Assembly: GCA_041662665.1 (NCBI GenBank)
Contig: JBAZSC010000003.1
Span: 143,115 to 207,114, forward strand
Source of the DNA: Patescibacteria group bacterium
GTDB taxonomy: Bacteria; Patescibacteriota; JABMPQ01; JAQVVF01
DNA: 64,000 bases
Reading direction: 5' to 3'
Positions 3,446 to 48,411 of the stretch are shown here, one piece after another (the first letter of the stretch is position 1; each line of letters opens with the position of its first letter). Made by a program: the position numbers and the translations under genes. The notes below the pieces were generated by a model. That model saw only the letters and a program-made list of their open reading frames with translations, was not told the DNA's origin and did no database searches.

Positions 3446-4015
3446 ATGATGAAGAAGTTTGAGAGTTTTCTAAAAAATAAAAAAGCAAAATATAAGGTAG
3501 TTTCGCATCGCAAGGTTTATACTGCTTGGGATAGTTCAGCGACACAACATATCAATATTAAAACTGTTGCAAAGACATTATTAGTTAAAGCAGATAATGA
3601 TTATTTTTTTGTTGTTTTATCTGCGAATAAAAAATTGGATATAAATAAGCTGAAGAAAATTATTAATGTTTGGCGTGTGAAAGAGGCTAAAACTTTAGAC
3701 AATATAAGAACTGCAACCACTAAAGCATCCGCCTTCGCTAAAGCTTCGGCGGACAGGCAAAAATTATTAAAAGCACAGAAAATTAAAAAAATTTCATTGT
3801 GTTCTGAAAATATTGTTAAGAAAAAAATTGTTGGCAAAGAAGGAGCGATGGCGCCATTCGGCAGTTTTTATGGTTATAAAACTTTTGTTGATTCATTGTT
3901 GTTAAAACAAAAGAAAATTAATTTAAATGCTGGTAGTTTTACTGAATCTCTGGAAATGACTCCAGCGAATTATAAAAAAGTAGAAGAACCAATTGTTGGA
4001 AGTTTTGGAAAATAA
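3446..4015 (+). CDS. YbaK/ProX-type aminoacyl-tRNA deacylase-like protein carrying an in-frame palindromic-element insertion
   Basis: KTLLVKADNDYFFVVLSANKKLDINKLKK and GAMAPFGSFYG resemble the YbaK/ProX editing domain. A GC-rich repeat at 3727-3756 encodes KASAFAKASADRQ. Confidence 0.55.
   Translation: MMKKFESFLKNKKAKYKVVSHRKVYTAWDSSATQHINIKTVAKTLLVKADNDYFFVVLSANKKLDINKLKKIINVWRVKEAKTLDNIRTATTKASAFAKASADRQKLLKAQKIKKISLCSENIVKKKIVGKEGAMAPFGSFYGYKTFVDSLLLKQKKINLNAGSFTESLEMTPANYKKVEEPIVGSFGK
3727..3756. repeat. Palindromic element copy 1 (TCCGCCTTCG...CTTCGGCGGACA family), in-frame inside a CDS
   Basis: tccgccttcgctaaagcttcggcggaca. The outer inverted repeat tccgcc/ggcgga is read directly from the sequence. 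Confidence 0.8.
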
Positions 4016-4750: not shown

Positions 4751-5417
4751 AGGGCCTTTGGATTTACTTTTGGATTTGATTGAAAAAGAAAAAATGGATA
4801 TTACTCATGTTTCATTATCAAAAGTAACAGATGATTATCTAAAATATTTAGAAAATTCAGAGGAAATTAGTCCAGCATTGTTGGCTGATTTTTTGCATGT
4901 GGCAGCACAATTGATTTTGATAAAATCAAGAAACTTATTGCCAGAAATTAATTTAGGAACAGATGAAGAAGTTTCAGCTGCAGAATTGCAAGCTAGATTG
5001 TTGGAATACAAGAAATATAAAGATTTGTCATTAAAAATTCAAGAATTATATGGCAAAAATATTTCTTTTGAACAAAAATTTAGTTTGCAAAAAATCGATG
5101 CTTTCTATCCAGGAAAAACTTTGAATTTAAATAATATGAACTTAGCTTTGTCTGAATTACTTGGTAGATTTGAAAAAATAGAAATATTGGAAAAGAAAAC
5201 AATCAAAAAGGCAGTGTCAATCAAAGAAAAAATTGTTTTTATAAAAGGATTGATTTTGAAGCAAGCAAAATTTAAATTTCATGATTTAATTAAAAATAAA
5301 AAATCAAAGTCTGAAACAATTGTTTCTTTTTTGGCATTGCTGGAATTGAATAAACAGCATTGCTTAAATATCTCGCAAGAAAATATTTTTGGAGATATAC
5401 TTATAAATCGCGACTAG
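4716..5417 (+). CDS. scpA: Segregation and condensation protein A (ScpA)
   Basis: The N-terminal LEKFEGPLDLLLDLIEKEKMDITHVSLSKVTDDYLKYL is the ScpA signature. Start chosen at the internal ATG 4716; the track ORF extends back to 4635. Confidence 0.8.
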   Translation: MQKYNVKLEKFEGPLDLLLDLIEKEKMDITHVSLSKVTDDYLKYLENSEEISPALLADFLHVAAQLILIKSRNLLPEINLGTDEEVSAAELQARLLEYKKYKDLSLKIQELYGKNISFEQKFSLQKIDAFYPGKTLNLNNMNLALSELLGRFEKIEILEKKTIKKAVSIKEKIVFIKGLILKQAKFKFHDLIKNKKSKSETIVSFLALLELNKQHCLNISQENIFGDILINRD

Positions 5418-5451
5418 ATATTCGGATATTACGATATTCGGATATTAGAAA
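5417..5451. repeat. ATATTCGGATATTA tandem motif (locus 1 of 3), between scpA and scpB
   Basis: atattcggatattacgatattcggatattagaaat. Confidence 0.65.
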
Positions 5452-5462
5452 TAAAAATATTT

Positions 5463-8677: not shown

Positions 8678-8740
8678 GATTGTTAAATTGTTTCATTGTT
8701 AAATTGTTAGCTAAAAAGTTAACAATTTATCAATTTAACA
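8678..8740. repeat. TTGTTAAATTGTT motif cluster (2 direct copies plus 1 inverted), upstream of the CBS gene
   Basis: The exact 13-mer ttgttaaattgtt occurs at 8680 and 8696. Further exact copies are at 47724 and 53834. Confidence 0.55.
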
Positions 8741-8756
8741 TTAAGCAATAAATGCT

Positions 8757-9212
8757 ATGCAAGTACAAGAAGTAATGACGAAGAAAATTGTCAAAATAAA
8801 AAAAGGGACAACGCTTCGAGAAGCGGCAAAAATTTTGATCAAAAATGATATAACTGGCGCGCCTGTAGTTAACGAAAAAAATAAAGTGATTGGCTTAATT
8901 TCTGAAAAGAATGTTTTTAGAGCGTTGTATCCAAATTATGAAGAATTTTATATTGATCTAGATATAATTGCAAAACCAAATACTTTGAATGACAGATTAA
9001 AAAATATTGTTGATTTGAAAGTTGAAAATTTTATGGTTCGTGATGTTATTTCAGCCTTGCCTTCTGATTCTTTAGTAAAAGTTGGCGGAATTATGATGGC
9101 ACGAGGCGTTCATCGAGTTTTAGTTGTTGATGAAAAAGATACTTTGCTTGGCGTTGTTAGCAGAAGAGACATTTATCCAGTAGTTTTTAAAATGTTGTTA
9201 AATATAAAATAA
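8757..9212 (+). CDS. CBS-domain pair protein
   Basis: Two CBS-like modules, KIVKIKKGTTLREAAKILIKNDITGAPVV and FMVRDVISALPSDSLVKVGGIMMARGVHRVLVVD. Confidence 0.75.
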   Translation: MQVQEVMTKKIVKIKKGTTLREAAKILIKNDITGAPVVNEKNKVIGLISEKNVFRALYPNYEEFYIDLDIIAKPNTLNDRLKNIVDLKVENFMVRDVISALPSDSLVKVGGIMMARGVHRVLVVDEKDTLLGVVSRRDIYPVVFKMLLNIK

Positions 9213-9281: not shown

Positions 9282-9315
9282 ATCCGCCTTCGCTTTGCTA
9301 AGCTTCGGCGGACAA
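9282..9315. repeat. Palindromic element copy 2, intergenic (upstream of mutM)
   Basis: atccgccttcgctttgctaagcttcggcggacaa. Confidence 0.8.
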
Positions 9316-9339
9316 AGGACGACAGTATAATATAATTTT

Positions 9340-10199: not shown

Positions 10200-10233
10200 A
10201 TCCGCCTTCGTCCTGTGGGACTTCGGCGGACAG
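10200..10233. repeat. Palindromic element copy 3, intergenic (downstream of mutM)
   Basis: atccgccttcgtcctgtgggacttcggcggacag, with inner hairpin gtcc-tgtg-ggac. Confidence 0.8.
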
Positions 10234-10296
10234 GTAAAGTTCATAAAGTATTTTTTTGGATATTGTTCTTTTGACAACGAGGAGAGGAGGAAAGAA

Positions 10297-10488
10297 ATGG
10301 AAAATTGTTCAAAGGGATTTTCGCAAGGGATTTTAAGTGGTAAAGATTATTTTATTTTTGCTGTAGATTTGGTAAAGCTTGTTCCGATTATGGTTGTGGC
10401 TGTACCAATTGTTTTGATGAATGTTGCGCGTGATAGATTGTCTAAAGACAAAAGTAAAAAATCAAGAATCTGTGGAATTGATTGGTAG
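10297..10488 (+). CDS. Small membrane protein (hypothetical)
   Basis: 63 aa ORF with a strong Shine-Dalgarno GAGGAGG 6 nt upstream. One hydrophobic helix. Local GC is higher than the surroundings. Confidence 0.5.
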   Translation: MENCSKGFSQGILSGKDYFIFAVDLVKLVPIMVVAVPIVLMNVARDRLSKDKSKKSRICGIDW

Positions 10489-10508
10489 CAAAAGAAGGAG
10501 GAAGGAAG

Positions 10509-11072
10509 ATGAGCGACAATGACTACGAAGGAGCTTTTGAGGGCATGTTGCATGGTTCTTTGAGAAGTAGGCTTGAAAATCTCTTTAAGACATTTTGGAA
10601 AGAAATTGTTTATTTGAAGGATACTCGAGGATTGGTTTTAAGTTTTGGAGTGTCGATTGTTGTGATTCTTGTTGTTGTTATTTTGATACCGTTGATAATA
10701 GTAATATGGTTGTATGATAAACTCGCAGCTATCTTTAACAGGTTTTCTGAAAAGAAAACAGATAGCTCTGAGTTTGAAAGAAAAGAAAAGACTGAGGCGA
10801 GAAAGAGGATGTTTGGGGAAGTAATGAAAGTTTTGTTTTTGGTATTGGTACTTGTAGTATTTTTTTTCTTGATTGCAATAAGACAACTTGGTTTTGCTTT
10901 TATCTGTTTGTGTGGAGGTCTCTTCTTTTGGTATATTTGGGAAAAATTTTTTACGGATCATGCAGGTTCGAGTAGTAATGTAACTTGTTGTGAATCTCTT
11001 GATCAGTGTACTTGTGATGGTGGAGAAATGTGTGATGCTTGCAGATATTATTATAATCATATTAATCAATAA
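10509..11072 (+). CDS. Membrane protein with a Cys-rich C-terminal tail (hypothetical)
   Basis: Strong Shine-Dalgarno AAGGAGGAAGG before ATG 10509. Hydrophobic helices and a C-terminal CCESLDQCTCDGGEMCDACRYY. Followed by the hairpin terminator at 11082-11105. Confidence 0.6.
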   Translation: MSDNDYEGAFEGMLHGSLRSRLENLFKTFWKEIVYLKDTRGLVLSFGVSIVVILVVVILIPLIIVIWLYDKLAAIFNRFSEKKTDSSEFERKEKTEARKRMFGEVMKVLFLVLVLVVFFFLIAIRQLGFAFICLCGGLFFWYIWEKFFTDHAGSSSNVTCCESLDQCTCDGGEMCDACRYYYNHINQ

Positions 11073-11081
11073 TTGATCTTT

Positions 11082-11105
11082 AACTGGTTTTGACCAGTTT
11101 TTTTG
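11082..11105 (+). terminator. Rho-independent terminator
   Basis: aactggt-tttg-accagtt followed by T7. Confidence 0.75.
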
Positions 11106-11109
11106 TACT

Positions 11110-11134
11110 AAAAAAACTCTTTGAAAAGAGTTTG
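11110..11134 (-). terminator. Rho-independent terminator for the minus-strand gene 11147..11530
   Basis: On the minus strand, aaactctt-ttcaa-agagttt then T7. Confidence 0.7.
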
Positions 11135-11146
11135 GTTAAAAGGGTA

Positions 11147-11530
11147 CTAGGGTAGAGTGGAGCATAGGCCGTAAAGTTCGACGATGGCATCTTGGTTGTC
11201 TTTGGGTGGTTTGATGGAGATGAGTGAATCAGGAATGAGTCCTAGAATATGAAATTTGATTTTGATTTCAAGCGAAGGAGAAAAGGTTTTGGTAATTTCC
11301 GAAGTGCCTTTGGTAATGACAATACAAGGGTCTTTCATGGTTTTGAATAGATAGCTGATGCCGATAATAGTGGCATTCCAGGCGGGCATTTCTTTTTCTC
11401 CAACCTGAACAATTTCATCTCCGAAGAAATCTTCCTCGTCATAACTTGTGAGAAGAACAGGTTCTGCAAAAGCGGAGGAACAAACAGAGAAAATGCACAG
11501 GAAGCAAAGTGCAGAGATGGCCTTTTTCAT
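11147..11530 (-). CDS. Secreted hypothetical protein (signal peptide)
   Basis: GGAGG Shine-Dalgarno 6 nt before ATG 11530. N-terminus MKKAISALCFLCIFSVCSSAFA. Own terminator at 11110-11134. Confidence 0.6.
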   Translation of the reverse strand: MKKAISALCFLCIFSVCSSAFAEPVLLTSYDEEDFFGDEIVQVGEKEMPAWNATIIGISYLFKTMKDPCIVITKGTSEITKTFSPSLEIKIKFHILGLIPDSLISIKPPKDNQDAIVELYGLCSTLP

Positions 11531-11627
11531 TGTTGTCCTCCGTGGGTGAAAGCCGACCATATCATATCATATTGAATGAATTTGTCAAGTTTTTGACAGT
11601 TATTTTATATTATAGTAAACTTGGAAT

Positions 11628-12714
11628 ATGCAGGAATTATTACAAAAATTAGAAAAAATAAAACAGGACATTGCGAAAGTAATGGATCGTCTTTGATATT
11701 GCGGGTAAAATTAGTAAAATAAGTAAAATAAGTAAAGATGTCCAGAGTCCTGATTTTTGGAAAGATACAAAAAAAGCAAAGGCAGTGATGCGTGATTTGG
11801 ATAGTCTAAAGAAAATGGTGGAATTATGGGAGGGCATGTTAGCTGAAACGAATGATTTATTTGATATGTTAGAAATTGCAAAGGATGATGAAATCTTGCA
11901 AAAAGAATTAGAACAGCGTTTTGAAATATTGAACAAAAAATTTGAACAGCACCAATTTGAAATAATGATGGCAGGTGAATATGATTTGAATAATGCAATT
12001 ATGATGATTCATTCAGGAACTGGTGGAACAGAAGCGCAAGATTGGGCAGAAATGTTACTTAGAATGTATTTGAGATATTGTGAAAAAAGAGGCTGGCAAA
12101 CTGAAATTATCGACAAGGTTTTGGGTAGCGAAGCTGGCATAAAAAATGCTACAATAAAGATAACTGGTAATTATGCTTATGGTTATCTAAAAGCTGAAGC
12201 TGGAATTCATAGATTAGTACGGCAATCTCCTTTTGATGCTGATCATGCAAGACATACTTCTTTTGCTTTGGTTGAAGTAATTCCAGAATTATCATCTGAT
12301 ATTAACATACAAATTGATCCAAGCGAATTAAGAATTGATACATATCGATCAAGTGGTGCAGGAGGCCAGAGTGTTAATAAAACAAGCTCTGCAGTTCGAA
12401 TTACACATTTGCCAACAGGAATTGTGGTTGCTTGCCAGAATGAAAGATCACAAGCTCAGAATAGAGAAACAGCAATGAGTATTTTGAAATCAAGACTTTT
12501 TGAGAGAGAATTGAAAAGAAAGAATGAAGAAAAAGCAAAAATTCGAGGCGAACATATTGAAGCAACTTGGAGCAATCAAATCAGGTCTTATGTTTTACAT
12601 CCATACAAAATGGTTAAAGATCATCGAACAGAATATGAGGTTAAAGATGCGGAGGCAGTGTTAAATGGAGATTTAGATGGATTTATTGATGAGTATTTAA
12701 AACGAGAATCATGA
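11628..12714 (+). CDS. prfB: Peptide chain release factor 2 with a programmed +1 ribosomal frameshift (join 11628..11693, 11695..12714)
   Basis: Frame 0 reads MQELLQKLEKIKQDIAKVMDRL, then CTT TGA at 11691-11696. The +1 frame continues DIAGKI...SPDFWKD and carries SPF (RQSPFD) and GGQ (SGAGGQSVNKT). Confidence 0.9.
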
Positions 12715-14565: not shown

Positions 14566-15435
14566 ATGAGCGTTATTGAAGTTAAAAATTTAAAAAAATA
14601 TTTTGGCAAGACTAAGGCAGTTGATGGTATTAGTTTTGAAGTTAAAAAAGGAGAGATCTTTGGTTTTTTGGGTCCAAATGGTGCAGGCAAGACAACAGCA
14701 ATTCGATGTATGATGGATTTTATAAAACCGACAAGTGGCGAAATTAAAATTTTAGACAGAGATGCCCAAAAAGACTCTGTTTTTTTGAAAGAAAAAATTG
14801 GCTATTTATCAGGAACTGTCAGGCTCTATGATAAATGGACTGGTAAAGAGCATCTTGATTTTATTAAAGAATTAAATGGCAAAAATAATATTGCTAATGA
14901 TTTGATTAAAAGATTAGACTTTGATGTTAAAGTGAAAACAAAAAGTCTGTCATCTGGAAACAGACAAAAGCTTGGAATAATTATGGCAATGTTATGCAAT
15001 CCAGAAGTTTTAATTCTTGATGAGCCATCAATGGCTCTTGATCCTTTGATGCAACATGAAGTTTATCATTTGATTAAAGAAGCATCAGAAAAAGGAACAA
15101 CTGTTTTTATGTCTTCTCATAATTTGGCAGAAGTGCAGAAAATTTGCAGTAGAATTGGAATTATAAAAAATGGCAAGATGGTAGCAATGGAAGATATTTC
15201 GACTTTGCGACAAAAAAGTATGTATACGATGAATATTAATTTTGAAGATAAAATTAATGCTGATGATTTTAAATTAGCTGGAGTTGAGATAATTAAGGCA
15301 TTGCCGAATGAGTTAAGTCTAGGAGTGAAAGGCGATTTGAATCCAATAATCAAAAAAATTGGTAATTATAGAATAAAAGATTTGGATATTGAACCTGCAT
15401 CTCTGGAAGAGATTTTCTTGGAATATTATGGTTAA
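14566..15435 (+). CDS. ABC transporter ATP-binding protein (ABC-2 type)
   Basis: GPNGAGKTT, LSSGNRQKL, LILDEPSMALD. Confidence 0.85.
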   Translation: MSVIEVKNLKKYFGKTKAVDGISFEVKKGEIFGFLGPNGAGKTTAIRCMMDFIKPTSGEIKILDRDAQKDSVFLKEKIGYLSGTVRLYDKWTGKEHLDFIKELNGKNNIANDLIKRLDFDVKVKTKSLSSGNRQKLGIIMAMLCNPEVLILDEPSMALDPLMQHEVYHLIKEASEKGTTVFMSSHNLAEVQKICSRIGIIKNGKMVAMEDISTLRQKSMYTMNINFEDKINADDFKLAGVEIIKALPNELSLGVKGDLNPIIKKIGNYRIKDLDIEPASLEEIFLEYYG

Positions 15436-15471
15436 ATTATTTGATTATGTTTAAATAAATATAGATGATTT

Positions 15472-15514
15472 TATCGCGGAAATACGCGGAAATTACGCGG
15501 AAAACGCAGAAAAA
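15472..15514. promoter_or_regulatory. Array of 4 direct ACGC(G/A)GAAA repeats at 10-11 bp phasing between the ABC ATPase and permease genes
   Basis: tcgcggaaat-acgcggaaatt-acgcggaaa-acgcagaaa. Ends 3 nt before ATG 15517. Confidence 0.6.
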
Positions 15515-15516
15515 AT

Positions 15517-16332
15517 ATGGTAAAAGAATTTTTCATTTTAGTTTGGCGGACAATTAAAGATCGCAAAATAACGATCATTGTTTATTGTTTGGCAGTAATT
15601 GCATTTTTATGGATGTATGTTGGTTTGTTTCCAGCATTTCGTGATCAGTCAGCAACTTTTAATGAAATGATGAAAAGTTATCCGCAGGATTTCATGAAAG
15701 CTTTTGGAGTGGAAAATATTGATATGAGTTCTTTGGAAAGTTTTTTGGCAATGGAGCAATTTGGAATAATCTGGCCTTTGATGGTTAGTTTTTTGATGAT
15801 TTCTTTGGCTGGAATAATGTTGGCTGGAGAAATAGAAAAGGGAACTTCCGAATTATTATTATCTAGGCCTGTATCTAGGCAACAAATTTTTTGGTCGCGG
15901 TATTTGGTTGGGATTGCTGTTTTGATAGTTTTTGTTTTTTGTTCAGTAATGGCAGTAATTCCTTTTGCGAAAATTTATAAGGTTGATTATCTAATTAATA
16001 ATTTTTGGACAATGTCTATGGCTTGCTTTTTGTTTGGTTGGGCGATTTTCAGCATTGCTTTTATGTTTTCAGCTATTTTTTCAGAGAGAAGCAGAGTTTA
16101 TATGTTGGCAGGTGGCTTGTTAGTTTTGATGTATGTGATAAAAATAATTTCTTCTTTGAAAGAAAGTTTGGAAAATTTGAAATATTTTTCTTTTTTCTAT
16201 TATTATGATGCTAATAGGGCATTGGTGGAGAATATAATTGATGGCAAATCTTGGGTTGTTTTTATGAGTGTTGCTGTTGTTTGTACTGTGATTGGGATGG
16301 TGGTGTTTAGAAAGAGGGATGTGGCGGTGTAG
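15517..16332 (+). CDS. ABC-2 type transporter permease
   Basis: 271 aa with 6 predicted TM helices. Directly downstream of the ABC-2 ATPase. Confidence 0.7.
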   Translation: MVKEFFILVWRTIKDRKITIIVYCLAVIAFLWMYVGLFPAFRDQSATFNEMMKSYPQDFMKAFGVENIDMSSLESFLAMEQFGIIWPLMVSFLMISLAGIMLAGEIEKGTSELLLSRPVSRQQIFWSRYLVGIAVLIVFVFCSVMAVIPFAKIYKVDYLINNFWTMSMACFLFGWAIFSIAFMFSAIFSERSRVYMLAGGLLVLMYVIKIISSLKESLENLKYFSFFYYYDANRALVENIIDGKSWVVFMSVAVVCTVIGMVVFRKRDVAV

Positions 16333-16365
16333 GTGTTTATAATTATTTTAAAATAAAAACTTATT

Positions 16366-17040
16366 ATGAAAAAAATTATATTTATTATATCTTTATTTGT
16401 GTTATTTTTTGGTTTTTATTTTGTTGATGCGAAGAAGCATAAAGTTGTACAAGTGCTTGATGGTAATACAATCAAAGTTAATATTCATGGTAAGATCAAA
16501 TCTGTAAAACTTATTGGTATTGATGCGCCGAAAATTAAAAGTTTTGGAAAATCAGATGAATGTTTTGGTAAAGAAGCATTAAGCTATTTAAAATCTAAAA
16601 TTGAAAATAAGAGAGTAAAGATTTTGAAAGATTCTGATGGGCGTAAGATTGATAATAAAGGATTCCTTTTGCGTTATGTTTATTTGGGTGAAAAAAATAT
16701 TAGTGCAAAAATACTTAAAGATGGTTATGTTTATGTTTATACTGGTTATCATTTTTCTAAAGTTAAAAGATTTAAAAAATTAGAAAAATACGCTCGCAAT
16801 AATGAAAGAGGATTATGGAATATTAGTACATGTGATGGTCAAAGAGAGATACCTGTAAAAGAACCGGTAAAAGTAATTAGTCATATTTATTATACGAGTT
16901 CTTACTATACTGCTAGATATTATTATTGTGATACTGATGATGCATGGAAAGGATTATCGCCGACATATTTAAGATCTTTTAATTCTGTTGAAGAATTATT
17001 GAGAAATTTTCCAGGCAGAATATTACACCAACCTTGTTAA
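16366..17040 (+). CDS. Thermonuclease (staphylococcal nuclease/SNase)-like secreted nuclease
   Basis: Signal/TM N-terminus, then KVVQVLDGNTIKV...VKLIGIDAPK...RYVYLGEKNISAKILKDGYVYVY, typical of the SNase fold. Confidence 0.7.
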   Translation: MKKIIFIISLFVLFFGFYFVDAKKHKVVQVLDGNTIKVNIHGKIKSVKLIGIDAPKIKSFGKSDECFGKEALSYLKSKIENKRVKILKDSDGRKIDNKGFLLRYVYLGEKNISAKILKDGYVYVYTGYHFSKVKRFKKLEKYARNNERGLWNISTCDGQREIPVKEPVKVISHIYYTSSYYTARYYYCDTDDAWKGLSPTYLRSFNSVEELLRNFPGRILHQPC

Positions 17041-17070
17041 AAATATAATTTTCTAAATTAATTTTAAAAA

Positions 17071-18822: not shown

Positions 18823-19035
18823 TAAAAAAATTTTATTGATCTTAGATGATGTTGAAAAATTGGTGTTTTAGTTTTTATTTTGATTTGCCAAAATTATTTT
18901 TATGAAAACAAAAAAGAGCAAAACAATTCAAATCGTTCTTCTTGTTTTGATTATTATCGGAATTATTTTGTTGTGTACTCAAAAATTTTGGGTAGACAAT
19001 TTGGTTGATTTTATTATGCAATATGAAAAAATCTA

Positions 19036-19290
19036 ATGTATTATCTTTATATTTTAGAATGTGCTGACAAGACTTTGTACACTGGGATTGCAACAGATCT
19101 GAAGCGGAGATTGCTTGAACATAATAGTTCTAAGTTAGGGGCGAAATATACGTGTGCAAGGAGGCCCGTTAAGTTAGTTTATTCAAAAAAATTTAAAACT
19201 AGATCAAAGGCTTGTATTGAAGAGGCGAGGATTAAAAAGCTAAAAAAAATTGAAAAAATGGAATTGATTCATAGGGGTTCAATATATTGA
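19036..19290 (+). CDS. GIY-YIG nuclease superfamily protein (YhbQ/UPF0213-like)
   Basis: YYLYILECADKTLYTGIATDLKRRLLEHN...KYT...RPVKLVY. Confidence 0.75.
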   Translation: MYYLYILECADKTLYTGIATDLKRRLLEHNSSKLGAKYTCARRPVKLVYSKKFKTRSKACIEEARIKKLKKIEKMELIHRGSIY

Positions 19291-20858: not shown

Positions 20859-20985
20859 AATTTAAGGAGGGGTAGGGGTTCAGAATTCTGAACCTTTATT
20901 TTTGTTTTCATTCTTTTTGATTGACAGAAAAATATATTTATGTAATGCTATTTAATCGTTCTTTGCCAACAAGGAGGGAAGGGAA

Positions 20986-22266
20986 GTGGAACAAAGAGAC
21001 AGAGATCTTGTTAAAGCGATGGTCAATGCTTATTTGGATAAGATGAGGGCCGGGTCGGATCCAGCGTGGACTGGCAGAAAGGAAAAGAATGCTTTGCATG
21101 ATGCTTTGTATATTGATGGTGTTCCGATTGTCTATGATGAAAAAAATTCTGCTCAATCATTGTTTAGCCAACTTGTTAGATTCAAAAAGGATAGTTTTGA
21201 TTGTTATCCTCGCGATATGGTTTACCATTTTTTGTACATGTTGGAATATCTGCAGATTTTGGAAGAGGATGGAATTAATGGATTGAATAAGAGGATTGCG
21301 ATTCTTGTTGATCAGTTGAGGACAATGAATCGTGATGATTATGATGGTATTCGTCATATTTGTAGACTTTTGGATAATTTGTTACAGACTGTGATTTATT
21401 TTTGTCCGCATCTGGTCTTTGGAGTGGAGTTGAAATTGAAGTCAGGCAGTGTCATGGATGATGAAGCTTTTGGTAATCTTTATGGCTATGAACATAATCG
21501 ATGGCCATATGAGAAAATGATGGAAATGCAAGGATTTAATCCTAATGATTCTCGAAGATTGCGAATGGTTGTTAATTTGCCATATAGTTTTACGACAGGT
21601 ACTCATGGTTCTGGCGAAAGAGCTGCTGTTGGATCATCGCGAGTACCGATTTGTTTTGGTACTTTGATGTATCGAGAAAGAATTCAGAAAAATGGTTCAG
21701 TACCTTGCGTCAAGATTTCAGTGAAACGACCTTTGTTGTCTGAGGATTATACGGCATTTGCAATTGACGAAGTAGAAAGTGTTCGACTTGTTCCAGAATG
21801 TGATTATATTCCATATTATTCTGATTTTGCTGATCATCCAGAAAAAGAAAAGCTGATTTCAAGAATGAAGCCAGAAGATTATTATCTGATTTTCAGAGAT
21901 TTTAGTAATTACGTTAATTTCAGGAGAGATAATGTTCCTAGTTCTTATGATCTATTGGAGCGAGCGGCATTTTTGGCAGGTTTCTGCGAGCCAAGCTATT
22001 TTTGTCGATTAACTGAATTAGATTATGATAGAAAATCTTTTCAACTCGGTTTCATTTGGGAAGTAGATATTCCAAGCCATAAGCCTCAAGTCTATGAATT
22101 TTGGGATATTGAAAAGCCTGATGACGATACTCATGTGGCATTGGGCATGGTCTATGTTGCAATCAAATCACTTGATCAAGAAGTTATGAAGAAGGTGTGT
22201 GTTCACGAAGGCATTGATATTATTCGAAGATTAATGCAAATTCCTGTTCATGATCGACATTTCTAG
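20986..22266 (+). CDS. Hypothetical protein (GTG start, strong Shine-Dalgarno, GC-richer than neighbours)
   Basis: 426 aa ORF. AAGGAGGG lies 7 nt before GTG 20986. No recognisable domain. Confidence 0.6.
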   Translation: MEQRDRDLVKAMVNAYLDKMRAGSDPAWTGRKEKNALHDALYIDGVPIVYDEKNSAQSLFSQLVRFKKDSFDCYPRDMVYHFLYMLEYLQILEEDGINGLNKRIAILVDQLRTMNRDDYDGIRHICRLLDNLLQTVIYFCPHLVFGVELKLKSGSVMDDEAFGNLYGYEHNRWPYEKMMEMQGFNPNDSRRLRMVVNLPYSFTTGTHGSGERAAVGSSRVPICFGTLMYRERIQKNGSVPCVKISVKRPLLSEDYTAFAIDEVESVRLVPECDYIPYYSDFADHPEKEKLISRMKPEDYYLIFRDFSNYVNFRRDNVPSSYDLLERAAFLAGFCEPSYFCRLTELDYDRKSFQLGFIWEVDIPSHKPQVYEFWDIEKPDDDTHVALGMVYVAIKSLDQEVMKKVCVHEGIDIIRRLMQIPVHDRHF

Positions 22267-22341
22267 TACTTTTAGACACATTATGTGTCTTTTTTTATTC
22301 TCAGTTGATTTTCAGCTTTATTTGGTATAAAATATATTGCT

Positions 22342-23016: not shown

Positions 23017-23035
23017 CTTAAAAATTTTAATATTG

Positions 23036-23080
23036 AGATATTCGGATATTACGGATATTAGAAATTAGAAATTAGAAATT
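23036..23080. repeat. ATATTCGGATATTA tandem motif (locus 2 of 3) plus 3x AAATTAG, between the response regulator and kinase genes
   Basis: gatattcggatattacggatattagaaattagaaattagaaatt. Confidence 0.65.
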
Positions 23081-23086
23081 TTCGTC

Positions 23087-25980: not shown

Positions 25981-25982
25981 GT

Positions 25983-26017
25983 TATAAAGTTTTAAAGTTA
26001 TAAAGTTCATAAAGTTG
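25983..26017. repeat. 4x tandem ATAAAGTT
   Basis: gttataaagttttaaagttataaagttcataaagtt, downstream of the HlyD-family gene. Confidence 0.5.
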
Positions 26018-26029
26018 TCTGCTATTTTC

Positions 26030-26058
26030 CAAATAAAAAAAGGCTGGTTAGGGCCTTG
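26030..26058 (-). terminator. Rho-independent terminator for the minus-strand gene 26074..26397
   Basis: On the minus strand, aaggc-cctaacca-gcctt then T8. Confidence 0.65.
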
Positions 26059-26073
26059 GTTGAGAGTGCTGTT

Positions 26074-26397
26074 CTAAAGTTTTAGAAGTGAATACATCTT
26101 TTGGAGCGTCGATTCATCTTGTATGATTTTTGCAATTTCATATTTTGGTACGGAGATTCCTATCTTTTCCGCTGCAAGTTCATTGAGTAGCACAGTGGAT
26201 GTTTTGTCATAATAGAGATGTACCCAATCTCCGTATGTGGTTGTTGGTTCTACAAAATCGTCAATTTTTACGAGAGCGAGAATTCGTTGTTCCTTGCTGA
26301 AAGATGATGAATTGTGAATTTCTACCCATTCAGCGAGAGAAAGATTAAGCCTTCTTAATTCATCAGCAGACAATTTCTGAAGTTCTGTCATTTCCAT
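26074..26397 (-). CDS. Hypothetical protein (GC-richer, strong Shine-Dalgarno) inserted antisense into the efflux locus
   Basis: 107 aa. GAAGGAGGAGG precedes the ATG. Own terminator at 26030-26058. Confidence 0.55.
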   Translation of the reverse strand: MEMTELQKLSADELRRLNLSLAEWVEIHNSSSFSKEQRILALVKIDDFVEPTTTYGDWVHLYYDKTSTVLLNELAAEKIGISVPKYEIAKIIQDESTLQKMYSLLKL

Positions 26398-26465
26398 CTC
26401 TTCTTCCTCCTCCTTCTTCTAGTGCAATAGAATGAGATTCTAGACTAAATAATATAACATAATTT

Positions 26466-27158: not shown

Positions 27159-27227
27159 CTGTCATTCTGAGGCCGAAGCCGAAGAATCCCATGAATATGC
27201 ATTTAACCAGGATGACGTGGTATTTTT

Positions 27228-28445: not shown

Positions 28446-28466
28446 CTTATTATTAATATTTAACAC

Positions 28467-28500: not shown

Positions 28501-28509
28501 GGAAAAATT

Positions 28510-28962
28510 ATGAAAAAAACGTGGATTATTATGGTGGTGTTATTAATTGTGGTAGGTGGCGGATCATTTTATGGCGGTATGAAATATGGACAAGGAAAGA
28601 AAACAAATTTGAGTGGAAGCGCAAAACAAGGTTTCCAGAACATGACTGATGAACAAAGACAGCAAAGAGCGCAAAATGGCGGATTAGGAAGAATGGGCAA
28701 TGGTAACGGTGGACTTGCAAATGGTGAAATTATTTCTAAAGATGATAAAAGTGTAACAATCAAATTGCGCGATGGCGGATCAAAAATTATTCTTTTTTCT
28801 GATTCTACAAAAGTTACCAAAAATGCAGAAGGAACAAAAAATGATTTGAAAGTTGGGGAAAATTTAATGGTGAGTGGAGATTCTAATTCTGATGGCAGTG
28901 TAACTGCAAAAACGATTCAGCTGATGCCTGCAGTTTTGGATAATGCACCAAAGACTAACTAA
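28510..28962 (+). CDS. Secreted Gly/Asn-rich small protein (hypothetical)
   Basis: Signal peptide MKKTWIIMVVLLIVVGGG. The ATG sits 10 nt downstream of a palindromic element whose 3' end supplies an AAGGA Shine-Dalgarno. Confidence 0.55.
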   Translation: MKKTWIIMVVLLIVVGGGSFYGGMKYGQGKKTNLSGSAKQGFQNMTDEQRQQRAQNGGLGRMGNGNGGLANGEIISKDDKSVTIKLRDGGSKIILFSDSTKVTKNAEGTKNDLKVGENLMVSGDSNSDGSVTAKTIQLMPAVLDNAPKTN

Positions 28963-30005: not shown

Positions 30006-30080
30006 AAACATTGACAGATATTTGTTTAAATTGTATTCTTTGTGGTTGGCGTATTTCCCTGGCAAAGGAGGGAGAAGGAA

Positions 30081-30521
30081 ATGGCAGACAAAAAAGATAC
30101 AGGATTTTGTGTGAAAACTTTAGGAGAAGGTAATGATAAAGTATCTTTTATTGCTTGCAGCACTTGTGGTGAGAAAATGTTCGGCGTTCTTTGTGATCAA
30201 TGTGTCGGAAATCATGTTTATTTTATTGGTCATAGTCCAAATTGCACATCTGAATTTGCAAAAGTTGCATCAAAACATGAAGGGCATGCAATTCGGGGGG
30301 AAAAGTCAGAATTAAATGAAATTTGTGTTGATGTAGTAACTAAGGACGGTATTAAGGATTATGTTGTTAAATGTAGAATTTGTGATCAACAGCTTATAGT
30401 TTTTCATTGTGAAAGATGTGATGAAAGAATAATTCATGGACATACTGCTGATTGTGATAGCGAGTCAGCACAGGTTCTAAGAAGACACGATGGTCATCCA
30501 TGTCATGAAGTTACTGGTTAA
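30081..30521 (+). CDS. Cys/His-rich protein with two tandem zinc-ribbon-like modules (novel family)
   Basis: AAGGAGGG Shine-Dalgarno. Two copies of the module C-x2-C...CxxC(D/E)...GH(S/T)xxC...(K/Q)VxxRH(D/E)GH. The terminator at 30539-30562 is identical to the one after 37146..37340. Confidence 0.65.
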   Translation: MADKKDTGFCVKTLGEGNDKVSFIACSTCGEKMFGVLCDQCVGNHVYFIGHSPNCTSEFAKVASKHEGHAIRGEKSELNEICVDVVTKDGIKDYVVKCRICDQQLIVFHCERCDERIIHGHTADCDSESAQVLRRHDGHPCHEVTG

Positions 30522-30538
30522 CTGATTGTACTTTTTTT

Positions 30539-30562
30539 AAACACCTTTTGGTGTTTTTTTTA
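30539..30562. terminator. Bidirectional rho-independent terminator ACACC-TTTT-GGTGT flanked by A/T runs
   Basis: aaacaccttttggtgtttttttt serves the convergent genes 30081..30521 (+) and 30560..31759 (-). The hairpin is identical to 37339-37360. Confidence 0.75.
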
Positions 30563-36334: not shown

Positions 36335-36394
36335 ATTCACTTGTTATACTTAAGTGTTAAAAATGTTCCTTCGACAAAAAGGGAGGGAGAGAAA

Positions 36395-37162
36395 ATGGAT
36401 ATACAACTGGCAATGACGATGTGGCGATTCCAGGACATTTTCGGAAGATTAAAGAAATGCATACGCTGGGGTGGATATAAGGAAAGGCATTATGAGCAGT
36501 CTTCTTTGGAGCATTCCTTTGCAATTGCACTTTTGACAGCATTTTGTGTAATGAAAGAAAAAGAATTAAAAGGACCAGCTGAAAATTTTGATCCTTTTAG
36601 AATGGTTGTTCATGCATTAGTTCATGATTTTTGTGAAGGAGCGATTGGTGATATTACTTATCGATTCAAAAATGATCCAAGACTTCTATATCTGGTTAAG
36701 TTAATTGAAAAAGAAGAAGGTTTGCGGTCAACAAGACATATATCTTTCATAGGTCCTTTTTTAGCTGAGGCTATTATCTTGGAGCCAGGCAGTCTTGAAG
36801 AAAAATTTTTCGATGCAATGGAAAGATTAGATTATTTTTTTTATGCGCTGGCTGAATATGAAATTCATAAACATTTGGATTTTGTAGCTGTCTTTGATCG
36901 ACAACACGCAAAATTAGTTGAATATGCAAGTGTATTTCCATCAGTTGCTATGATATATAGTCAAGAAGTCCAAGAATATGTTGAAAAGGAAATGAAAACT
37001 AATTGGGGTTTGATTGGTTTGGGTGGAGAGCTTAGACCTCATAAACCATGTCAAAAAGATGTTGAAGATTTGGAAGAAGCGCTGAAGCAATTATTGGCGC
37101 AACTTGCCAAGCAGAGGGAAGCCTCTGGAGAGAAAGGAGGAACAGATGCCAGCACTGTCTGA
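36395..37162 (+). CDS. HD-domain phosphohydrolase (YfbR 5'-deoxynucleotidase-like)
   Basis: LEHSFAIALL (H) ... VHALVHDFCEGAIGDIT (HD...D). AAGGGAGGGAG Shine-Dalgarno, and GC-richer than neighbours. Confidence 0.6.
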   Translation: MDIQLAMTMWRFQDIFGRLKKCIRWGGYKERHYEQSSLEHSFAIALLTAFCVMKEKELKGPAENFDPFRMVVHALVHDFCEGAIGDITYRFKNDPRLLYLVKLIEKEEGLRSTRHISFIGPFLAEAIILEPGSLEEKFFDAMERLDYFFYALAEYEIHKHLDFVAVFDRQHAKLVEYASVFPSVAMIYSQEVQEYVEKEMKTNWGLIGLGGELRPHKPCQKDVEDLEEALKQLLAQLAKQREASGEKGGTDASTV

Positions 37163-37340
37163 AAAAGAACAAGCAAGGATGAAAGCAGAAAAGCAAGAAG
37201 TTTGTACTGAATGTGGGGTACCAACTCATAGGAATTATTGTCGCAGTTGTGATGAATATTTTGAAGATGGTCATACATTAGTTTGTAATGATATGATGGC
37301 ACAAGACGCAAGACGTCATTCAGAATGTCGTACCCATTAA
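37146..37340 (+). CDS. Small zinc-ribbon protein, single-module paralogue of the 30081..30521 product
   Basis: AAAGGAGGA Shine-Dalgarno. Overlaps the upstream stop by 17 nt. Protein CTECGVPTHRNYCRSCDEYFEDGHTLVC...RRHSEC. The ACACC-TTTT-GGTGT-T8 terminator is identical to 30539-30562. Confidence 0.6.
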   Translation: MPALSEKEQARMKAEKQEVCTECGVPTHRNYCRSCDEYFEDGHTLVCNDMMAQDARRHSECRTH

Positions 37341-37365
37341 CACCTTTTTGGTGTTTTTTTATTTT
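37339..37365 (+). terminator. Rho-independent terminator, same hairpin as 30539-30562
   Basis: aacacc-ttttt-ggtgtt followed by tttttttatttt. Confidence 0.75.
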
Positions 37366-45084: not shown

Positions 45085-46977
45085 ATGAAGGATCAAAACA
45101 AACAAACAAAAAAGGAGAGAAAAGAAGTAAATGTTGATGTTCTGTCAACCATAGATGAATATTTAGGAAAGATGGATTGGCGAGTTTCAGCAAATGCAAA
45201 CCAAGGCTATTCTTTAGGCGGTATGATTTTGAATACTGCTGGAAAAGTAGTAGCTAATTATTGGTTGCACAAAATTTATCCAAAGGAAGTTGGAGAAGCG
45301 CATATCCATGGTGATTATCATATTCATGATTTGGATATGTTTTCAGGCTATTGCGCTGGTTGGAGCATTAGGCAACTTCTTGAAGAAGGATTTAATGGTG
45401 TTTCTGGTAAGGTTGAATCTGGTCCAGCAAAACATTTAGAAACAGCTTTGGGTCAAATGGTAAATTTTTTAGGAACATTACAAAATGAATGGGCAGGCGC
45501 TCAAGCATTTTCATCTTTTGACACATATTTAGCGCCATTTGTTAAAGTTGATAAATTAAGTTATGAAAGAGTTTTTCAATGCATTCAGCAATTTGTTTTT
45601 AATTTAAATGTTCCATCAAGATGGGGAACACAGACGCCATTTACAAATGTTACTTTAGATTGGGTTTGTCCAGAAGATATGAAAGATCGAAAACCAGTAA
45701 TTGGTGGAAAAGTCGTTGATTTTACTTATGGAGATTGCCAAAAAGAAATGGATTTAGTCAATAAAGCTTTTATTGAAACAATGATTACTGGAGATAATAA
45801 AAGCAGAATTTTTACTTTTCCAATTCCAACTTATAATATTACAAAAGATTTTGATTGGGAAAATGAAAATGTAAAATTATTATTTGAAATGACTGCTAAA
45901 TATGGCACTCCTTATTTTCAAAATTTTTTGAATTCAAGTTTAAAACCATCTGATGTCAGAAGCATGTGCTGTAGATTGCAATTAGATTTGCGTGAATTGA
46001 AAGCAAAAGGCGGAGGTTTGTTTGGTTCAGCAGAAATGACTGGCAGTATTGGTGTTGTAACTATTAATTTGGCAAGAATTGGTTATCTAGCTAAAACAAA
46101 AGAAGAATTTTTACAACGATTAGCAAGATTAATGGATCTTGCAAAGACTTCTTTAGATATGAAAAGAAAAGTAATTGAGGAAAACATGGAAAAAGGATTG
46201 TTGCCATATACAAAACGCTATCTTGGATCTTTGCATAATCATTTTTCAACAATTGGCATTAACGGATCTAATGAAGCCTGTTTGAATTTTTTAAAAAAAG
46301 ATATTTCTCATCCAGAAGCGAAGAAATTCATTGTTGAAGTTTTGGATTTTATGAGAAAAAAATTAGCTGACTATCAAGAAGAGACAAACAATTTTTATAA
46401 TTTGGAGGCAACTCCGGCAGAAGGAACGACTTATAGGTTTGCAAAAGAAGATCAGAAAAGATATCCAGATATTATTCAAGCTGGAACAAAAGATGCGCCA
46501 TATTATACAAACTCAACTCATTTGCCAGTTGGTTATACTGATAATCCAATGGAAGCTTTGGATCATCAAGATGATTTGCAGACTAAATATACAGGCGGAA
46601 CAGTATTGCATTTATTTTTGGGCGAAAGGATTATGAATTGGAAAGTTTGTCGAGATTTAGTAAAAAGAGTAGCTGAAAATTACAGATTGCCATATTTTAC
46701 GATGACTCCGACATTTAGCATTTGTCCAACGCATGGCTATTTGAATGGCGAGCAAAAGAATTGCCCAATTTGTGAAAAAGAATGCGAAGTTTGGTCAAGA
46801 GTAATGGGATATTTTAGACCTGTTTCACAATGGAATAAAGGCAAGCAAAGTGAATATAAAGAACGCAAAGAATATGAAATTAAGAATTTAAAATATGAAA
46901 ATAGCAGGATTTCAGAAATTAAGCCTATTGGAATATCCAGACCGGATTTGCGCAATAGTGTTTCTGCAAGGATGTAA
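45085..46977 (+). CDS. nrdD: Anaerobic ribonucleoside-triphosphate reductase (class III)
   Basis: C-terminal Zn/Gly-radical region CPTHGYLNGEQKNCPICEK...RVMGYFRPVSQWNKGKQSE and a central RNR fold. Confidence 0.9.
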   Translation: MKDQNKQTKKERKEVNVDVLSTIDEYLGKMDWRVSANANQGYSLGGMILNTAGKVVANYWLHKIYPKEVGEAHIHGDYHIHDLDMFSGYCAGWSIRQLLEEGFNGVSGKVESGPAKHLETALGQMVNFLGTLQNEWAGAQAFSSFDTYLAPFVKVDKLSYERVFQCIQQFVFNLNVPSRWGTQTPFTNVTLDWVCPEDMKDRKPVIGGKVVDFTYGDCQKEMDLVNKAFIETMITGDNKSRIFTFPIPTYNITKDFDWENENVKLLFEMTAKYGTPYFQNFLNSSLKPSDVRSMCCRLQLDLRELKAKGGGLFGSAEMTGSIGVVTINLARIGYLAKTKEEFLQRLARLMDLAKTSLDMKRKVIEENMEKGLLPYTKRYLGSLHNHFSTIGINGSNEACLNFLKKDISHPEAKKFIVEVLDFMRKKLADYQEETNNFYNLEATPAEGTTYRFAKEDQKRYPDIIQAGTKDAPYYTNSTHLPVGYTDNPMEALDHQDDLQTKYTGGTVLHLFLGERIMNWKVCRDLVKRVAENYRLPYFTMTPTFSICPTHGYLNGEQKNCPICEKECEVWSRVMGYFRPVSQWNKGKQSEYKERKEYEIKNLKYENSRISEIKPIGISRPDLRNSVSARM

Positions 46978-47617
46978 TTTTAAGTGTCCTTTTTGCCATA
47001 ATCCAGAATTGGTATATAACGATCCGCCTACGTCCTGCGGGACTTTGGCGGACAAAGTAACCGAGGAAGAGGTCTTCGGTTATTTGGTTAAGAAGAAAAA
47101 AATGCTAGATGGAGTTTGTATCACAGGAGGCGAGCCAACTTTGCATGCTGATTTGATTGATTTTATTGTAAAGCTTAAAAAGATTGGATATTTGGTTAAG
47201 CTGGATACAAATGGATCAAACCCTAAAATGTTGAAAGAACTTTTTGACAAAAAATTACTTGATTATGTGGCTATGGATTTAAAAGCACCATTTGAAAGAT
47301 ATTCGGAAATTGTGGGTTTAGGGCATAGGGCACAGGGCTTGGGTATTATTGAAAATTGTAAAAAGTCTTTTAAATTAATCCAGGAATCTTCCGTTGATCA
47401 TGAATTTAGGACGACTGTTTTTCCGCAAGAACATATAGAAAATGATTTTATGAAAATGGCAGGATATCTGAAAAAAGGCGAGAAATATTATTTGCAAAAT
47501 ATTAGATACATTAAAAATTTAGATCAAAATTTGGATCAAAGTAAAAAAATAGATATTGCTATGCTTTTGAATAAATTAAAGAGTAAATTTCCTGATATTT
47601 GTGTTGAAGAAAGATAA
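46895..47617 (+). CDS. nrdG: Anaerobic ribonucleotide reductase activating protein (radical SAM) with an in-frame palindromic-element insertion
   Basis: GCNFKCPFCHNPEL, then the insertion-encoded DPPTSCGTLADK, then ITGGEPTL. Overlaps the nrdD 3' end by 83 nt. Confidence 0.8.
   Translation: MKIAGFQKLSLLEYPDRICAIVFLQGCNFKCPFCHNPELVYNDPPTSCGTLADKVTEEEVFGYLVKKKKMLDGVCITGGEPTLHADLIDFIVKLKKIGYLVKLDTNGSNPKMLKELFDKKLLDYVAMDLKAPFERYSEIVGLGHRAQGLGIIENCKKSFKLIQESSVDHEFRTTVFPQEHIENDFMKMAGYLKKGEKYYLQNIRYIKNLDQNLDQSKKIDIAMLLNKLKSKFPDICVEER
47011..47046. repeat. Palindromic element copy 8, in-frame inside nrdG
   Basis: atccgcctacgtcctgcgggactttggcggacaaag, which encodes DPPTSCGTLADK. Confidence 0.8.
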
Positions 47618-47625
47618 TATTCGGA

Positions 47626-47660: not shown

Positions 47661-47831
47661 TAAATACAGAGTTTACACTTTGTATTTTTTTTGTTAAAAT
47701 AAACATATTGTTGAATTGTTAGATTGTTAAATTGTTAAGATTTGAATACGATTAGCAATTAAATAATTTAGTACTTGAACAATTTTGGTCATAAAAAAAC
47801 GCTTTAATAGCGTTTGAGTAAAAAGAGCAGA

Positions 47832-48326
47832 TTAGAGGAACTTTCGGCAATATTCTGTTGCTTTGGCGCAGGGAGTTTCAGTAAGAAAAAAGATGATATC
47901 ATGATCATGTTGCATTCCTAGCATTTTTAGATTTGCTTGATGTGAAATATCTGGATTACTTGATTCATGCAAAGAATTGAGATCTTGAATGATCTTAGGA
48001 ATGGTATTTTGTCGCATTCTTTCGTTGGTTGCGCAAACAAATTCACGTTGTACTTGAAACCAATCGCGAGATTCTTCGGTATTTTTCCACATTCCGGTAT
48101 ATTGACTCATCAATCCAAGAGATTGCCTTGCCAGTTTGAGATCCTCTCTGACTTTTTCTATTTTTTCATCGATTTTTCCAAGTTCCATTAGCTGAAGACA
48201 GATTTTATCACCATTGCAAATTGCAATATCGACTTCATCGGCTCGAGCTTTGGTAATGAATGTAGAAAGCAAGAAAACGACACAGAGAATAATCACAGTT
48301 CCAATCGTCTCTTTTGCCCTTCTCAC
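47832..48326 (-). CDS. Secreted protein, possibly DUF1311/LprI-like
   Basis: GGAGGG Shine-Dalgarno 4 nt before GTG 48326. Signal peptide RRAKETIGTVIILCVVFLLSTFITKARA. GC-richer than neighbours. The track ORF starts at an upstream TTG. Confidence 0.45.
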   Translation of the reverse strand: MRRAKETIGTVIILCVVFLLSTFITKARADEVDIAICNGDKICLQLMELGKIDEKIEKVREDLKLARQSLGLMSQYTGMWKNTEESRDWFQVQREFVCATNERMRQNTIPKIIQDLNSLHESSNPDISHQANLKMLGMQHDHDIIFFLTETPCAKATEYCRKFL

Positions 48327-48411
48327 TTTTCCCTCCGTTTTGTCCCTTTCTTGGGACTTCAAGGAACCAGATTGATTATAAGCACAAGATTATATTTTTG
48401 TCAACTGAAAA

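Follow-up and report, generated by a model that had tools for sequence, protein, structure and literature searches.

Strong Shine–Dalgarno leaders on a minority of genes in a Shine–Dalgarno-poor Parcubacteria-type genome

Genes preceded by strong Shine–Dalgarno (SD) sequences were studied in a 64,000-nucleotide stretch of a Patescibacteria genome (GenBank assembly GCA_041662665.1, contig JBAZSC010000003.1; the whole stretch is called the window below). Nine of the 68 curated complete genes scored in the window carry such a leader, the remaining 59 do not, and an SD-led class was likewise found in related genomes. A first-pass annotation of the DNA had described the nine as a distinct class, and this description is supported here and replicated in the relatives. 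The preferred reading, to which a probability of roughly 55% is assigned, is a two-tier mode of translation initiation, in which core genes would be started independently of SD pairing and flexible, lineage-specific cassettes would depend on it.

The organism is, as far as can be judged from its sequence, a Parcubacteria/Paceibacteria-type Patescibacterium. The MacB-type permease encoded in the window is 58-70% identical to proteins of 80 GTDB species representatives, which are labelled mostly as Paceibacteria, Parcubacteria and related groups of the candidate phyla radiation (CPR), some of the metagenome-assembled genomes being evidently mislabelled; no close species representative was present among the GTDB representatives matched through this permease. 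The window has a GC content of 31%, a strong positive GC skew and one tRNA, and rRNA was found neither in it nor in any of the loci fetched. The genetic code is standard: TGA is a stop codon, because prfB at 11629 carries a CTT TGA +1 frameshift.

The Shine–Dalgarno signal and the genes behind it

The SD strength of each gene was calculated as the duplex energy between its leader (positions -22 to -4) and an assumed anti-SD tail of the 16S rRNA, ACCUCCUUU. The energies of the 68 genes were bimodal with a clean gap: the values of the nine SD-led genes ranged from -9.5 to -12.3 kcal/mol, and the other 59 all lay above -6.7 kcal/mol (40 of them at or above 0). The coordinates of the nine genes in the first-pass annotation were right throughout, also for the two that start with GTG (20986 and 48326); the spacing, given there as 4-8 nucleotides (nt), came to 5-9 nt in all nine when measured to the start codon from the last base of GGAGG. 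GGAGG occurs 45 times on the two strands of the window, and ten of these copies are placed 5-11 nt upstream of the nine SD-led starts, against a chance expectation of 0.17 (60-fold; Poisson P ~4e-15); the control pentamers GGTGG and GGCGG were never found at the same placement (0/38 and 0/52, respectively). An exhaustive scan of the window yielded no further intergenic SD-led open reading frame of at least 20 amino acids (aa), the other matches being weaker and located inside genes. Over positions -20 to -1 the SD leaders are nearly pure purine (T 2%, G 41%), as compared with T 36% and G 7% in the rest.

The leaders of the 59 genes without an SD are mostly A/T only. Such leaders had been reported before as a trait of housekeeping genes; the leaders themselves were seen, but the absence of an SD is the default of this genome and extends to transporters, a two-component system and eight orphans without a family in the window. 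One gene identity was also corrected: the gene at 19476 encodes nicotinate phosphoribosyltransferase (NAPRTase), and glnA is located at 37495.

It is exceedingly improbable that the class is an artefact of sampling or annotation, produced by chance purine runs, wrongly assigned starts or a chimeric assembly. Coincidences of GGAGG with a start codon do occur inside genes, both in the window and commonly in GC-richer Parcubacteria loci, but the excess over chance placement, the clean energy gap, the recurrence of the same genes in independent assemblies (L001, L002, L092, L093) and the presence of the pattern in six loci from other genomes effectively refute this explanation. A sampling artefact, which the annotation itself had named as the refutation of its pattern, fails for the genus, with the pattern repeated in the six related loci.

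The SD-led genes and their units are collated below, with pairing energies in kcal/mol in brackets.

10281..10488, plus strand: SD leader GAGGAGAGGAGGAAAGAA and gene 10297..10488, with GGAGG at 10286-10290, 6 nt before the ATG (-12.0); product of 63 aa with one transmembrane (TM) segment and no Pfam family
10493..11072, plus strand: SD and gene 10509..11072, with GGAGG at 10497-10501 (-12.2), placed in the same transcription unit as 10297; product of 187 aa with four TM segments, 8 Cys and a C-terminal CxC..CxxC tail
11082..11099, plus strand: intrinsic terminator of the 10297-10509 unit, kept in two relatives (L087 and L089)
11147..11588, minus strand: gene 11147..11530, SD and promoter, with GGAGG at 11537-11541 (-9.5); promoter TTGACA-16-TATGAT at 11561-11588 (11/12 consensus positions); product of 127 aa with a predicted signal peptide
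20970..22290, plus strand: SD, GTG-start gene 20986..22266 and terminator 22274-22290, with GGAGG at 20973-20977 (-11.7); product a 426-aa ORFan, the sole match of which among 5.8 billion clusters was itself
26040..26413, minus strand: terminator 26040-26057, gene 26074..26397 and SD GGAGGAGG at 26406-26413 (-12.2); product a 107-aa orphan, encoded antisense between an HlyD-like and an ABC-ATPase gene
30011..30556, plus strand: promoter, SD, gene 30081..30521 and terminator 30539-30556, with GGAGG at 30067-30071 (-12.3); promoter TTGACA-17-TATTCT at 30011-30039; product of 146 aa with two Zn-type repeats
36380..37162, plus strand: SD and gene 36395..37162, with GGAGG at 36382-36386 (-12.0); product of 255 aa matching PF12917 over residues 12-178 (43.1 bits, cut-off 25.9)
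37136..37355, plus strand: SD, gene 37146..37340 and terminator 37339-37355, with GGAGG at 37136-37140 (-11.9), the SD lying within the 3' end of the HD gene 36395..37162; product of 64 aa with a single Zn-type repeat
47797..48404, minus strand: terminator 47797-47815, GTG-start gene 47832..48326, SD and promoter, with GGAGG at 48332-48336 (-10.0); promoter TTGACA-18-TATAAT at 48375-48404 (12/12 consensus positions); product of 164 aa with a predicted signal-like N-terminus (signal peptide or anchor)

Seven of the nine genes head transcription units of their own. Near-consensus promoters of the type TTGACA-N16-18-TATAAT were located upstream of 11530(-), 30081 and 48326(-), and terminator-like hairpins follow directly 3' of six of the seven SD units (11082, 22274, 26057(-), 30539, 37339 and 47815(-)), in keeping with the terminators described earlier; the hairpin after the seventh, 11147(-), is weaker and was seen by eye. 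A further SD-led orphan was located in the same genome about 2 kb to the left of the window, between secF and aspS (L092, 2831-3208, minus strand; 125 aa, GC 0.347, GACGGAGGAGACAAAG before its ATG). Its neighbour, unk409, which encodes a secreted orphan of 409 aa, has an A/T leader and no SD.

The SD-led products comprise small Cys/His-rich proteins, small membrane or secreted proteins, ORFans and nucleotide-salvage enzymes; a signal peptide or TM segments were predicted for four of the nine, which is the one observation bearing on the host- or partner-interaction role suggested as possible in the first-pass annotation. This agrees with the product classes named in the first-pass annotation (small membrane, secreted, Cys-rich or orphan) except for 36395, which by its sequence match is a YfbR-like HD 5'-deoxynucleotidase. 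The subfamily to which it belongs is very rare: 36395 and two relatives were the only members found in 5.8 billion clusters. The small Cys/His-rich proteins are probably Zn-binding. Gene 30081 encodes two copies, and 37146 one copy, of a Cys/His domain that had not been classified before, CxxC-x8-CxxC-x6-8-GH-x3-C-x10-H (also found in L086, 1130-1546), and at least two of the scattered SD-led genes are therefore related. A full HMMER search with 30081 against 1.84 billion representatives gave one true homologue, the other matches being DUF4116-like repeat noise. AlphaFold2 models of the 426-aa ORFan and of 30081 reached pLDDT values of 34 and 51, respectively, and were too poor for a fold search.

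The SD-led genes also differ from the rest in composition and size. Their mean GC was 0.368, as compared with 0.307 for the others (Mann-Whitney p = 6e-6), which bears out the higher GC noted earlier; the six GC-richest genes of the window are all SD-led, with 11147(-) at the top (0.419). The excess is located mainly at codon positions 1 and 2 (fewer Ile/Lys/Asn, more Cys/His/Arg), only +0.055 (p = 0.03) remaining at synonymous third positions once amino-acid content was controlled, and the extra GC is thus mostly a matter of amino-acid composition. GC at third positions (GC3) is at or below the genome mean in 30081 and 37146, and is 0.23 above expectation in 11147(-). Per-gene Cys content averaged 4.1% in SD-led genes and 1.0% in the others (p = 7e-4), and protein length 171 and 287 aa, respectively. 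A Pfam family was assigned to one of the nine SD-led proteins and to 51 of the other 59 (Fisher p = 1.4e-5). The predicted fold energy over positions -30 to +30 was -7.7 kcal/mol for SD-led genes and -3.7 kcal/mol for the others (p = 1.5e-4).

Retention and turnover in related genomes

Relatives were traced by homology to mutM, 30081 and the HD protein, and six loci were used: L084 and L086 (both from sample SRR22388014), L087 (GCA_964574655.1; mutM 86% identical), L089 (mutM 88%), and L090 and L091 (mutM 67-69%). A contig of 48% GC (L085) holding a 43%-identical HD homologue was also compared, as was a broad clade set of 80 Parcubacteria loci (L004-L083; ~1.2 Mb, GC 27 to 66%).

In the six loci 11 of 65 genes are SD-led, and conserved genes there have A/T leaders; together with 9/68 in the window, the SD-led share thus amounts to about 13-17%. 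GGAGG lies 4-8 nt before the start in the relatives and 4-9 nt, mostly 5-6 nt, before ATG or GTG over all 20 SD-led genes. The compositional differences recur: relative to the locus median, GC was +0.035 for SD-led and -0.003 for other genes (p = 0.01), and Cys content was 3.5% and 1.1%, respectively (p = 9e-4).

The SD was retained in every orthologue pair, namely window/L086 (30081), window/L084 (36395) and L087/L089 (thymidine kinase), at synonymous divergences (dS) of 0.6-1.2, where synonymous sites are near saturation. The HD gene of L084 (85% identity) begins with GTG and keeps its SD, and so does the 43%-identical homologue in L085, next to a gene with an A/T leader. In some cases the signal is kept although its letters change: GGGAGGGAG before ATG becomes AGGAGGAG before GTG, and the SD of the kinase shifts register. 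The syntenic orthologue of 30081 in L086 is only 46-47% identical, as compared with 88-93% for the flanking genes, and has an unchanged SD and a 5' untranslated region (5'UTR) identical over ~36 nt. Nonsynonymous divergence (dN) was 0.45 for 30081, 0.37 for the thymidine kinase and 0.086 for the HD gene (flanking genes: dN 0.03-0.14, dS 0.6-0.9), so that two of the three SD-led pairs tested have a fast-evolving protein.

The presence or absence of the genes in relatives, a check suggested in the first-pass annotation, did vary. Gene 37146 is absent from L084, where the HD gene and the same terminator are kept, and 11147(-) is absent from L087. An SD-led thymidine kinase, absent from the window, is encoded antisense in L087 and L089, with a conserved gene on either side; apart from this minus-strand gene (PF00265:TK) and the YfbR-like 36395 (PF12917), no SD-led gene has a recognisable family. 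The SD-led small proteins encoded in the gap between mutM and prfB differ from genome to genome, the flanks being conserved and the terminator the same; several of them have a TM segment and a CxC..CxxC tail, and in L087 and L089 other SD-led small proteins encoded 3' of mutM share the C-terminal motif of 10509. Besides mutM-prfB, hot spots between conserved genes are ftsX-NAPRTase and the interior of the HlyD/ABC operon, which is split by 26074(-) and the HlyD-ABC junction of which, in 70 of 72 Parcubacteria loci, is too tight to hold a gene.

The 80 loci of the broad clade set are all SD-poor whatever their GC, with an SD at 0-22% of first-ATG starts. Under strict rules ~2.5% of their genes are SD-led, and the trends point the same way, more weakly (Cys p = 0.005, length p = 0.02, GC p = 0.07); the automated survey of these GC-richer loci is noisy because intragenic GGAGG encoding Gly-Gly gives false matches. 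The SD-less default is already known for the clade, given these 80 loci and the anti-SD result of Tsurumaki et al. (2022, PMC9297842). That study, on the same clade, explains or parallels the SD-poor default from the rRNA side only, with SD helices inferred to be absent where the motif is lacking, and describes no SD-led class. Full-text searches directed at translation signals in CPR/Parcubacteria turned up neither a sizeable conserved SD-led minority in a CPR lineage nor a link of such genes to the flexible orphan gene pool.

Origin and mode of translation

The first-pass annotation had suggested that the genes were horizontally acquired. Their flexibility supports this in part (presence or absence among relatives, insertion of 26074(-) into an operon), but several of them predate the divergence of these distant genomes. 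Word-indexed searches of 5.8 billion protein clusters with the 426-aa and HD proteins and the HMMER search of 1.84 billion representatives with 30081 gave no homologue outside the lineage. The sole match in PHROGs was a generic HD; a phage database of 50,697 records gave no match to the 426-aa protein and none above 37% identity to the thymidine kinase of the relatives; scans of IMG/VR were negative; PADLOC gave no significant defence-family match; and nothing was found in two scans of metagenomes and an initial one of genomes. The SD-led genes have no integrase or transposase as a neighbour, and no prophage, tRNA or att-site context was found. A donor or phage origin was rejected, with no donor, phage or defence relative in the libraries searched.

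One alternative explains the leaders as relics of recent transfer, their promoters, SDs and terminators stemming from an SD-using, GC-richer donor (for instance a host, another bacterium or a phage) and the SD being one that the present ribosome does not need or cannot read. The higher GC with its amino-acid bias, the orphan status of the genes, their patchy distribution, the GC3 of 11147(-) and the loss of the anti-SD reported in many Parcubacteria (PMC9297842) would all suit it. However, SD and spacing were kept in all orthologue pairs and in the 43%-identical homologue, the low GC3 of 30081 and 37146 indicates long-term residents, the libraries returned no donor or phage relatives, and clearly mobile genes (the restriction-modification island and a GIY-YIG gene described below) have A/T leaders; the alternative is therefore considered unlikely. 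Presence in the ancestor of diverged genomes and equilibrated third positions both argue against relics of very recent import.

The idea that an SD marks any orphan or accessory gene was likewise rejected: the eight orphans of the window, unk409 and the accessory or mobile genes of the same genomes (the restriction-modification/defence island, GIY-YIG, NYN) have none. Flexible genomic islets, ORFan cassettes and phage morons resemble the SD-led units in being promoter-gene-terminator units, often antisense, between conserved genes, with content swapped among close relatives, atypical composition and no homologues. They differ in that phage or mobility context is missing here and that a translation signal marks the set while other accessory genes lack it.

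The optimal spacing, the non-random placement and the retention at near-saturated dS together make the SDs look functional, and functional SDs would imply a working CCUCC anti-SD in the lineage; the conserved and optimally spaced GGAGG motifs argue for its retention. In two-tier initiation, core genes would start on unstructured A/T-only leaders without an SD, the default of the clade, and the SD class would be a flexible, lineage-specific set of stand-alone units at a few variable hot spots. Its SDs would act by ordinary pairing with the retained CCUCC anti-SD. SD initiation may have been kept since the genes form leadered stand-alone mRNAs, and their GC-richer, more structured start regions may suit the A/T-leader route poorly. 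The set would turn over by recombination within the gene pool of the lineage rather than by recent import from SD-using donors. Of the "specially translated gene set" proposed earlier, special translation is supported in a limited sense, by spacing and retention (dS 0.6-1.2, the 43%-identical homologue), but a separate regulatory programme is not.

A leaderless default for the SD-less genes is a hypothesis that is not needed: -10-like hexamers show a weak excess at -14 to -12 relative to the ATG, and operon-internal genes also lack an SD.

Several observations weigh against two-tier initiation. The coverage comprises ~64 kb of this genome and ~80 kb from relatives. Fold energies over -20 to +20 are the same in both classes, so the argument from a structured start is weak. 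Over 40 nt, the leaders of orthologues match at 32-35 positions in SD genes and at 21-34 in SD-less genes, a modest gain. Some GC-rich or Cys-rich genes have no SD (28510, zf_Tbcl_2 in L090 and L091, and other accessory genes). Among the 16S genes of Parcubacteria, Tsurumaki et al. (2022, PMC9297842) detected the anti-SD motif in no more than 48%. The +1 frameshift of prfB (11629-12714; CTT TGA at ~11688-11694, site GTAATGGATCGTCTTTGAT) has no SD-like stimulator upstream, and the site is identical in L087; this would be odd if a free anti-SD were generally available. In most bacteria, including the SD-blind Bacteroidia, the SD at the prfB frameshift site is conserved.

The prfB site bears on a second alternative, that of a conditionally translated regulon, in which the anti-SD is usually unavailable or a GGA-binding regulator acts on the leaders and the SD-led set would be translated only in a certain ribosome state or under certain conditions, as with rpsU and bS21-free ribosomes in Flavobacteria. 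Avoidance of SDs by the rest of the genome, prfB included, fits a ribosome that rarely uses its anti-SD; each leader forms a long run of purines that includes 2-3 GGA motifs; a relative in which the 30081 protein has diverged strongly has conserved its 5'UTR; bS21 is often missing (PMC9297842) or enlarged in Parcubacteria; and a precedent exists in Bacteroidia (PMC9976891, PMC13000453). On the other hand, the window contains no CsrA-like gene, the products have no evident function in common, and the predicted pairing of GGAGG within the leaders was not significantly above that in shuffled ones (0.51 vs 0.46, p = 0.49), so that such a regulon has a low probability, similar to that of transfer relics. 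Sequestration of the SD by upstream pyrimidine tracts, in the manner of a thermometer, was rejected on the same figures.

SD-blind translation in Bacteroidia (Flavobacterium johnsoniae; PMC7797042, PMC9976891, PMC13000453) is the closest parallel known, and the likeness consists in the genome-wide absence of SDs, the A-rich leaders and a small minority with a strong or extended SD that is read differently from the rest; there, rpsU keeps an extended SD that is read by bS21-free ribosomes. The SD-led genes of Bacteroidia are core ribosomal-protein genes, in F. johnsoniae essentially rpsU alone, whereas the class described here accounts for 13-17% of genes and is made up of orphan, flexible and Cys-rich ones. 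No ribosomal-protein gene is among the nine SD-led genes of the window and the 11 of the relatives, rpsU itself lying outside the sequence covered. The SD at the prfB frameshift is kept in Bacteroidia and missing in this lineage. The mechanism in Bacteroidia is sequestration of the anti-SD by bS21/bS18/bS6. By analogy, a translationally insulated programme might be imagined, in which a ribosome state or condition exposes a masked anti-SD and switches on flexible Cys-rich, secreted and membrane genes, perhaps for interaction with a host or partner; this is a speculative extension and somewhat less probable than either alternative above. Such a programme, if real, would be for a broad set of non-ribosomal genes what the rpsU/bS21 circuit is for a single gene in Flavobacteria.

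Bacteria poor in SDs have been described before, and about half of Parcubacteria are reported to have lost the anti-SD motif. Should the two-tier pattern hold genome-wide, it would argue for a working anti-SD in this lineage, offer a natural system for two initiation modes on one ribosome and allow fast-evolving, lineage-specific genes of uncultured CPR bacteria to be recognised by a simple feature of their sequence, such genes being the likeliest candidates for symbiosis or surface functions. Gene calling would also be affected, as a start-site model trained on one mode mis-calls the other.

Repeats and neighbouring genes

A family of palindromic repeats of ~35 nt (ATCCGCCTTCG-short stem-loop-CTTCGGCGGACARG) resembles Rickettsia palindromic elements or REP/MITE-like mobile hairpins. 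Its copies and three further repeat families, which are intergenic and follow stop codons, are located as follows.

3723-3770, 9282-9329, 10200-10247, 28467-28514, 29890-29965, 44937-44984 and 47022-47069: palindromic repeat copies
5416-5462, 23020-23082 and 47615-47661: repeat family GATATTCGGATATTA
8679-8717, 47707-47745 and 53833-53871: repeat family ATTGTTAAATTGTT
25981-26015, and also L087 10825-10855: repeat family AAAGTTATAAAGTT

Two palindromic copies lie within coding sequence, in a tRNA_edit gene (3446..4015) and in the gene for an NrdG activase (46895..47617). The NrdG protein with the copy, which encodes DPPTSCGTLADK, is ~7 aa longer than its orthologue in L090, which diverges there. 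A nested double copy upstream of 30081 is missing from L086. Integron-like cassettes were rejected as an explanation of the SD units: the repeats adjoin only some of them, and L086 keeps the 30081 orthologue without the upstream copies.

Between ftsX and the NAPRTase gene, L087 (14498-20601) carries a restriction-modification/defence island (LexA-methylase fusion, Vsr, DUF7380, PD-(D/E)XK/Cas4-like); its counterpart in the window (14566-19290) encodes ABC transporters, an SNase and a CrtC/lipocalin-like protein, and neither version has an SD, so that hot spots hold contents of another kind as well. A small stand-alone GIY-YIG nuclease gene (19036-19290; L087 20236-20601) resembles a selfish mobile gene and is preceded by an A/T leader lacking an SD; copies of up to 83% identity occur in six otherwise distant Parcubacteria loci. 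In L011 a small stand-alone GIY-YIG gene (8695-8928) occupies an unusually wide HlyD-ABC gap. The order of the HlyD-like, ABC ATPase and MacB-type permease genes and that of a small Gly-rich protein (28510..28962) is conserved between the window (24193-28962) and ~70 loci among L004-L083, and the identity of 58-70% for the MacB-type permease is unusually high for a transporter in this clade.

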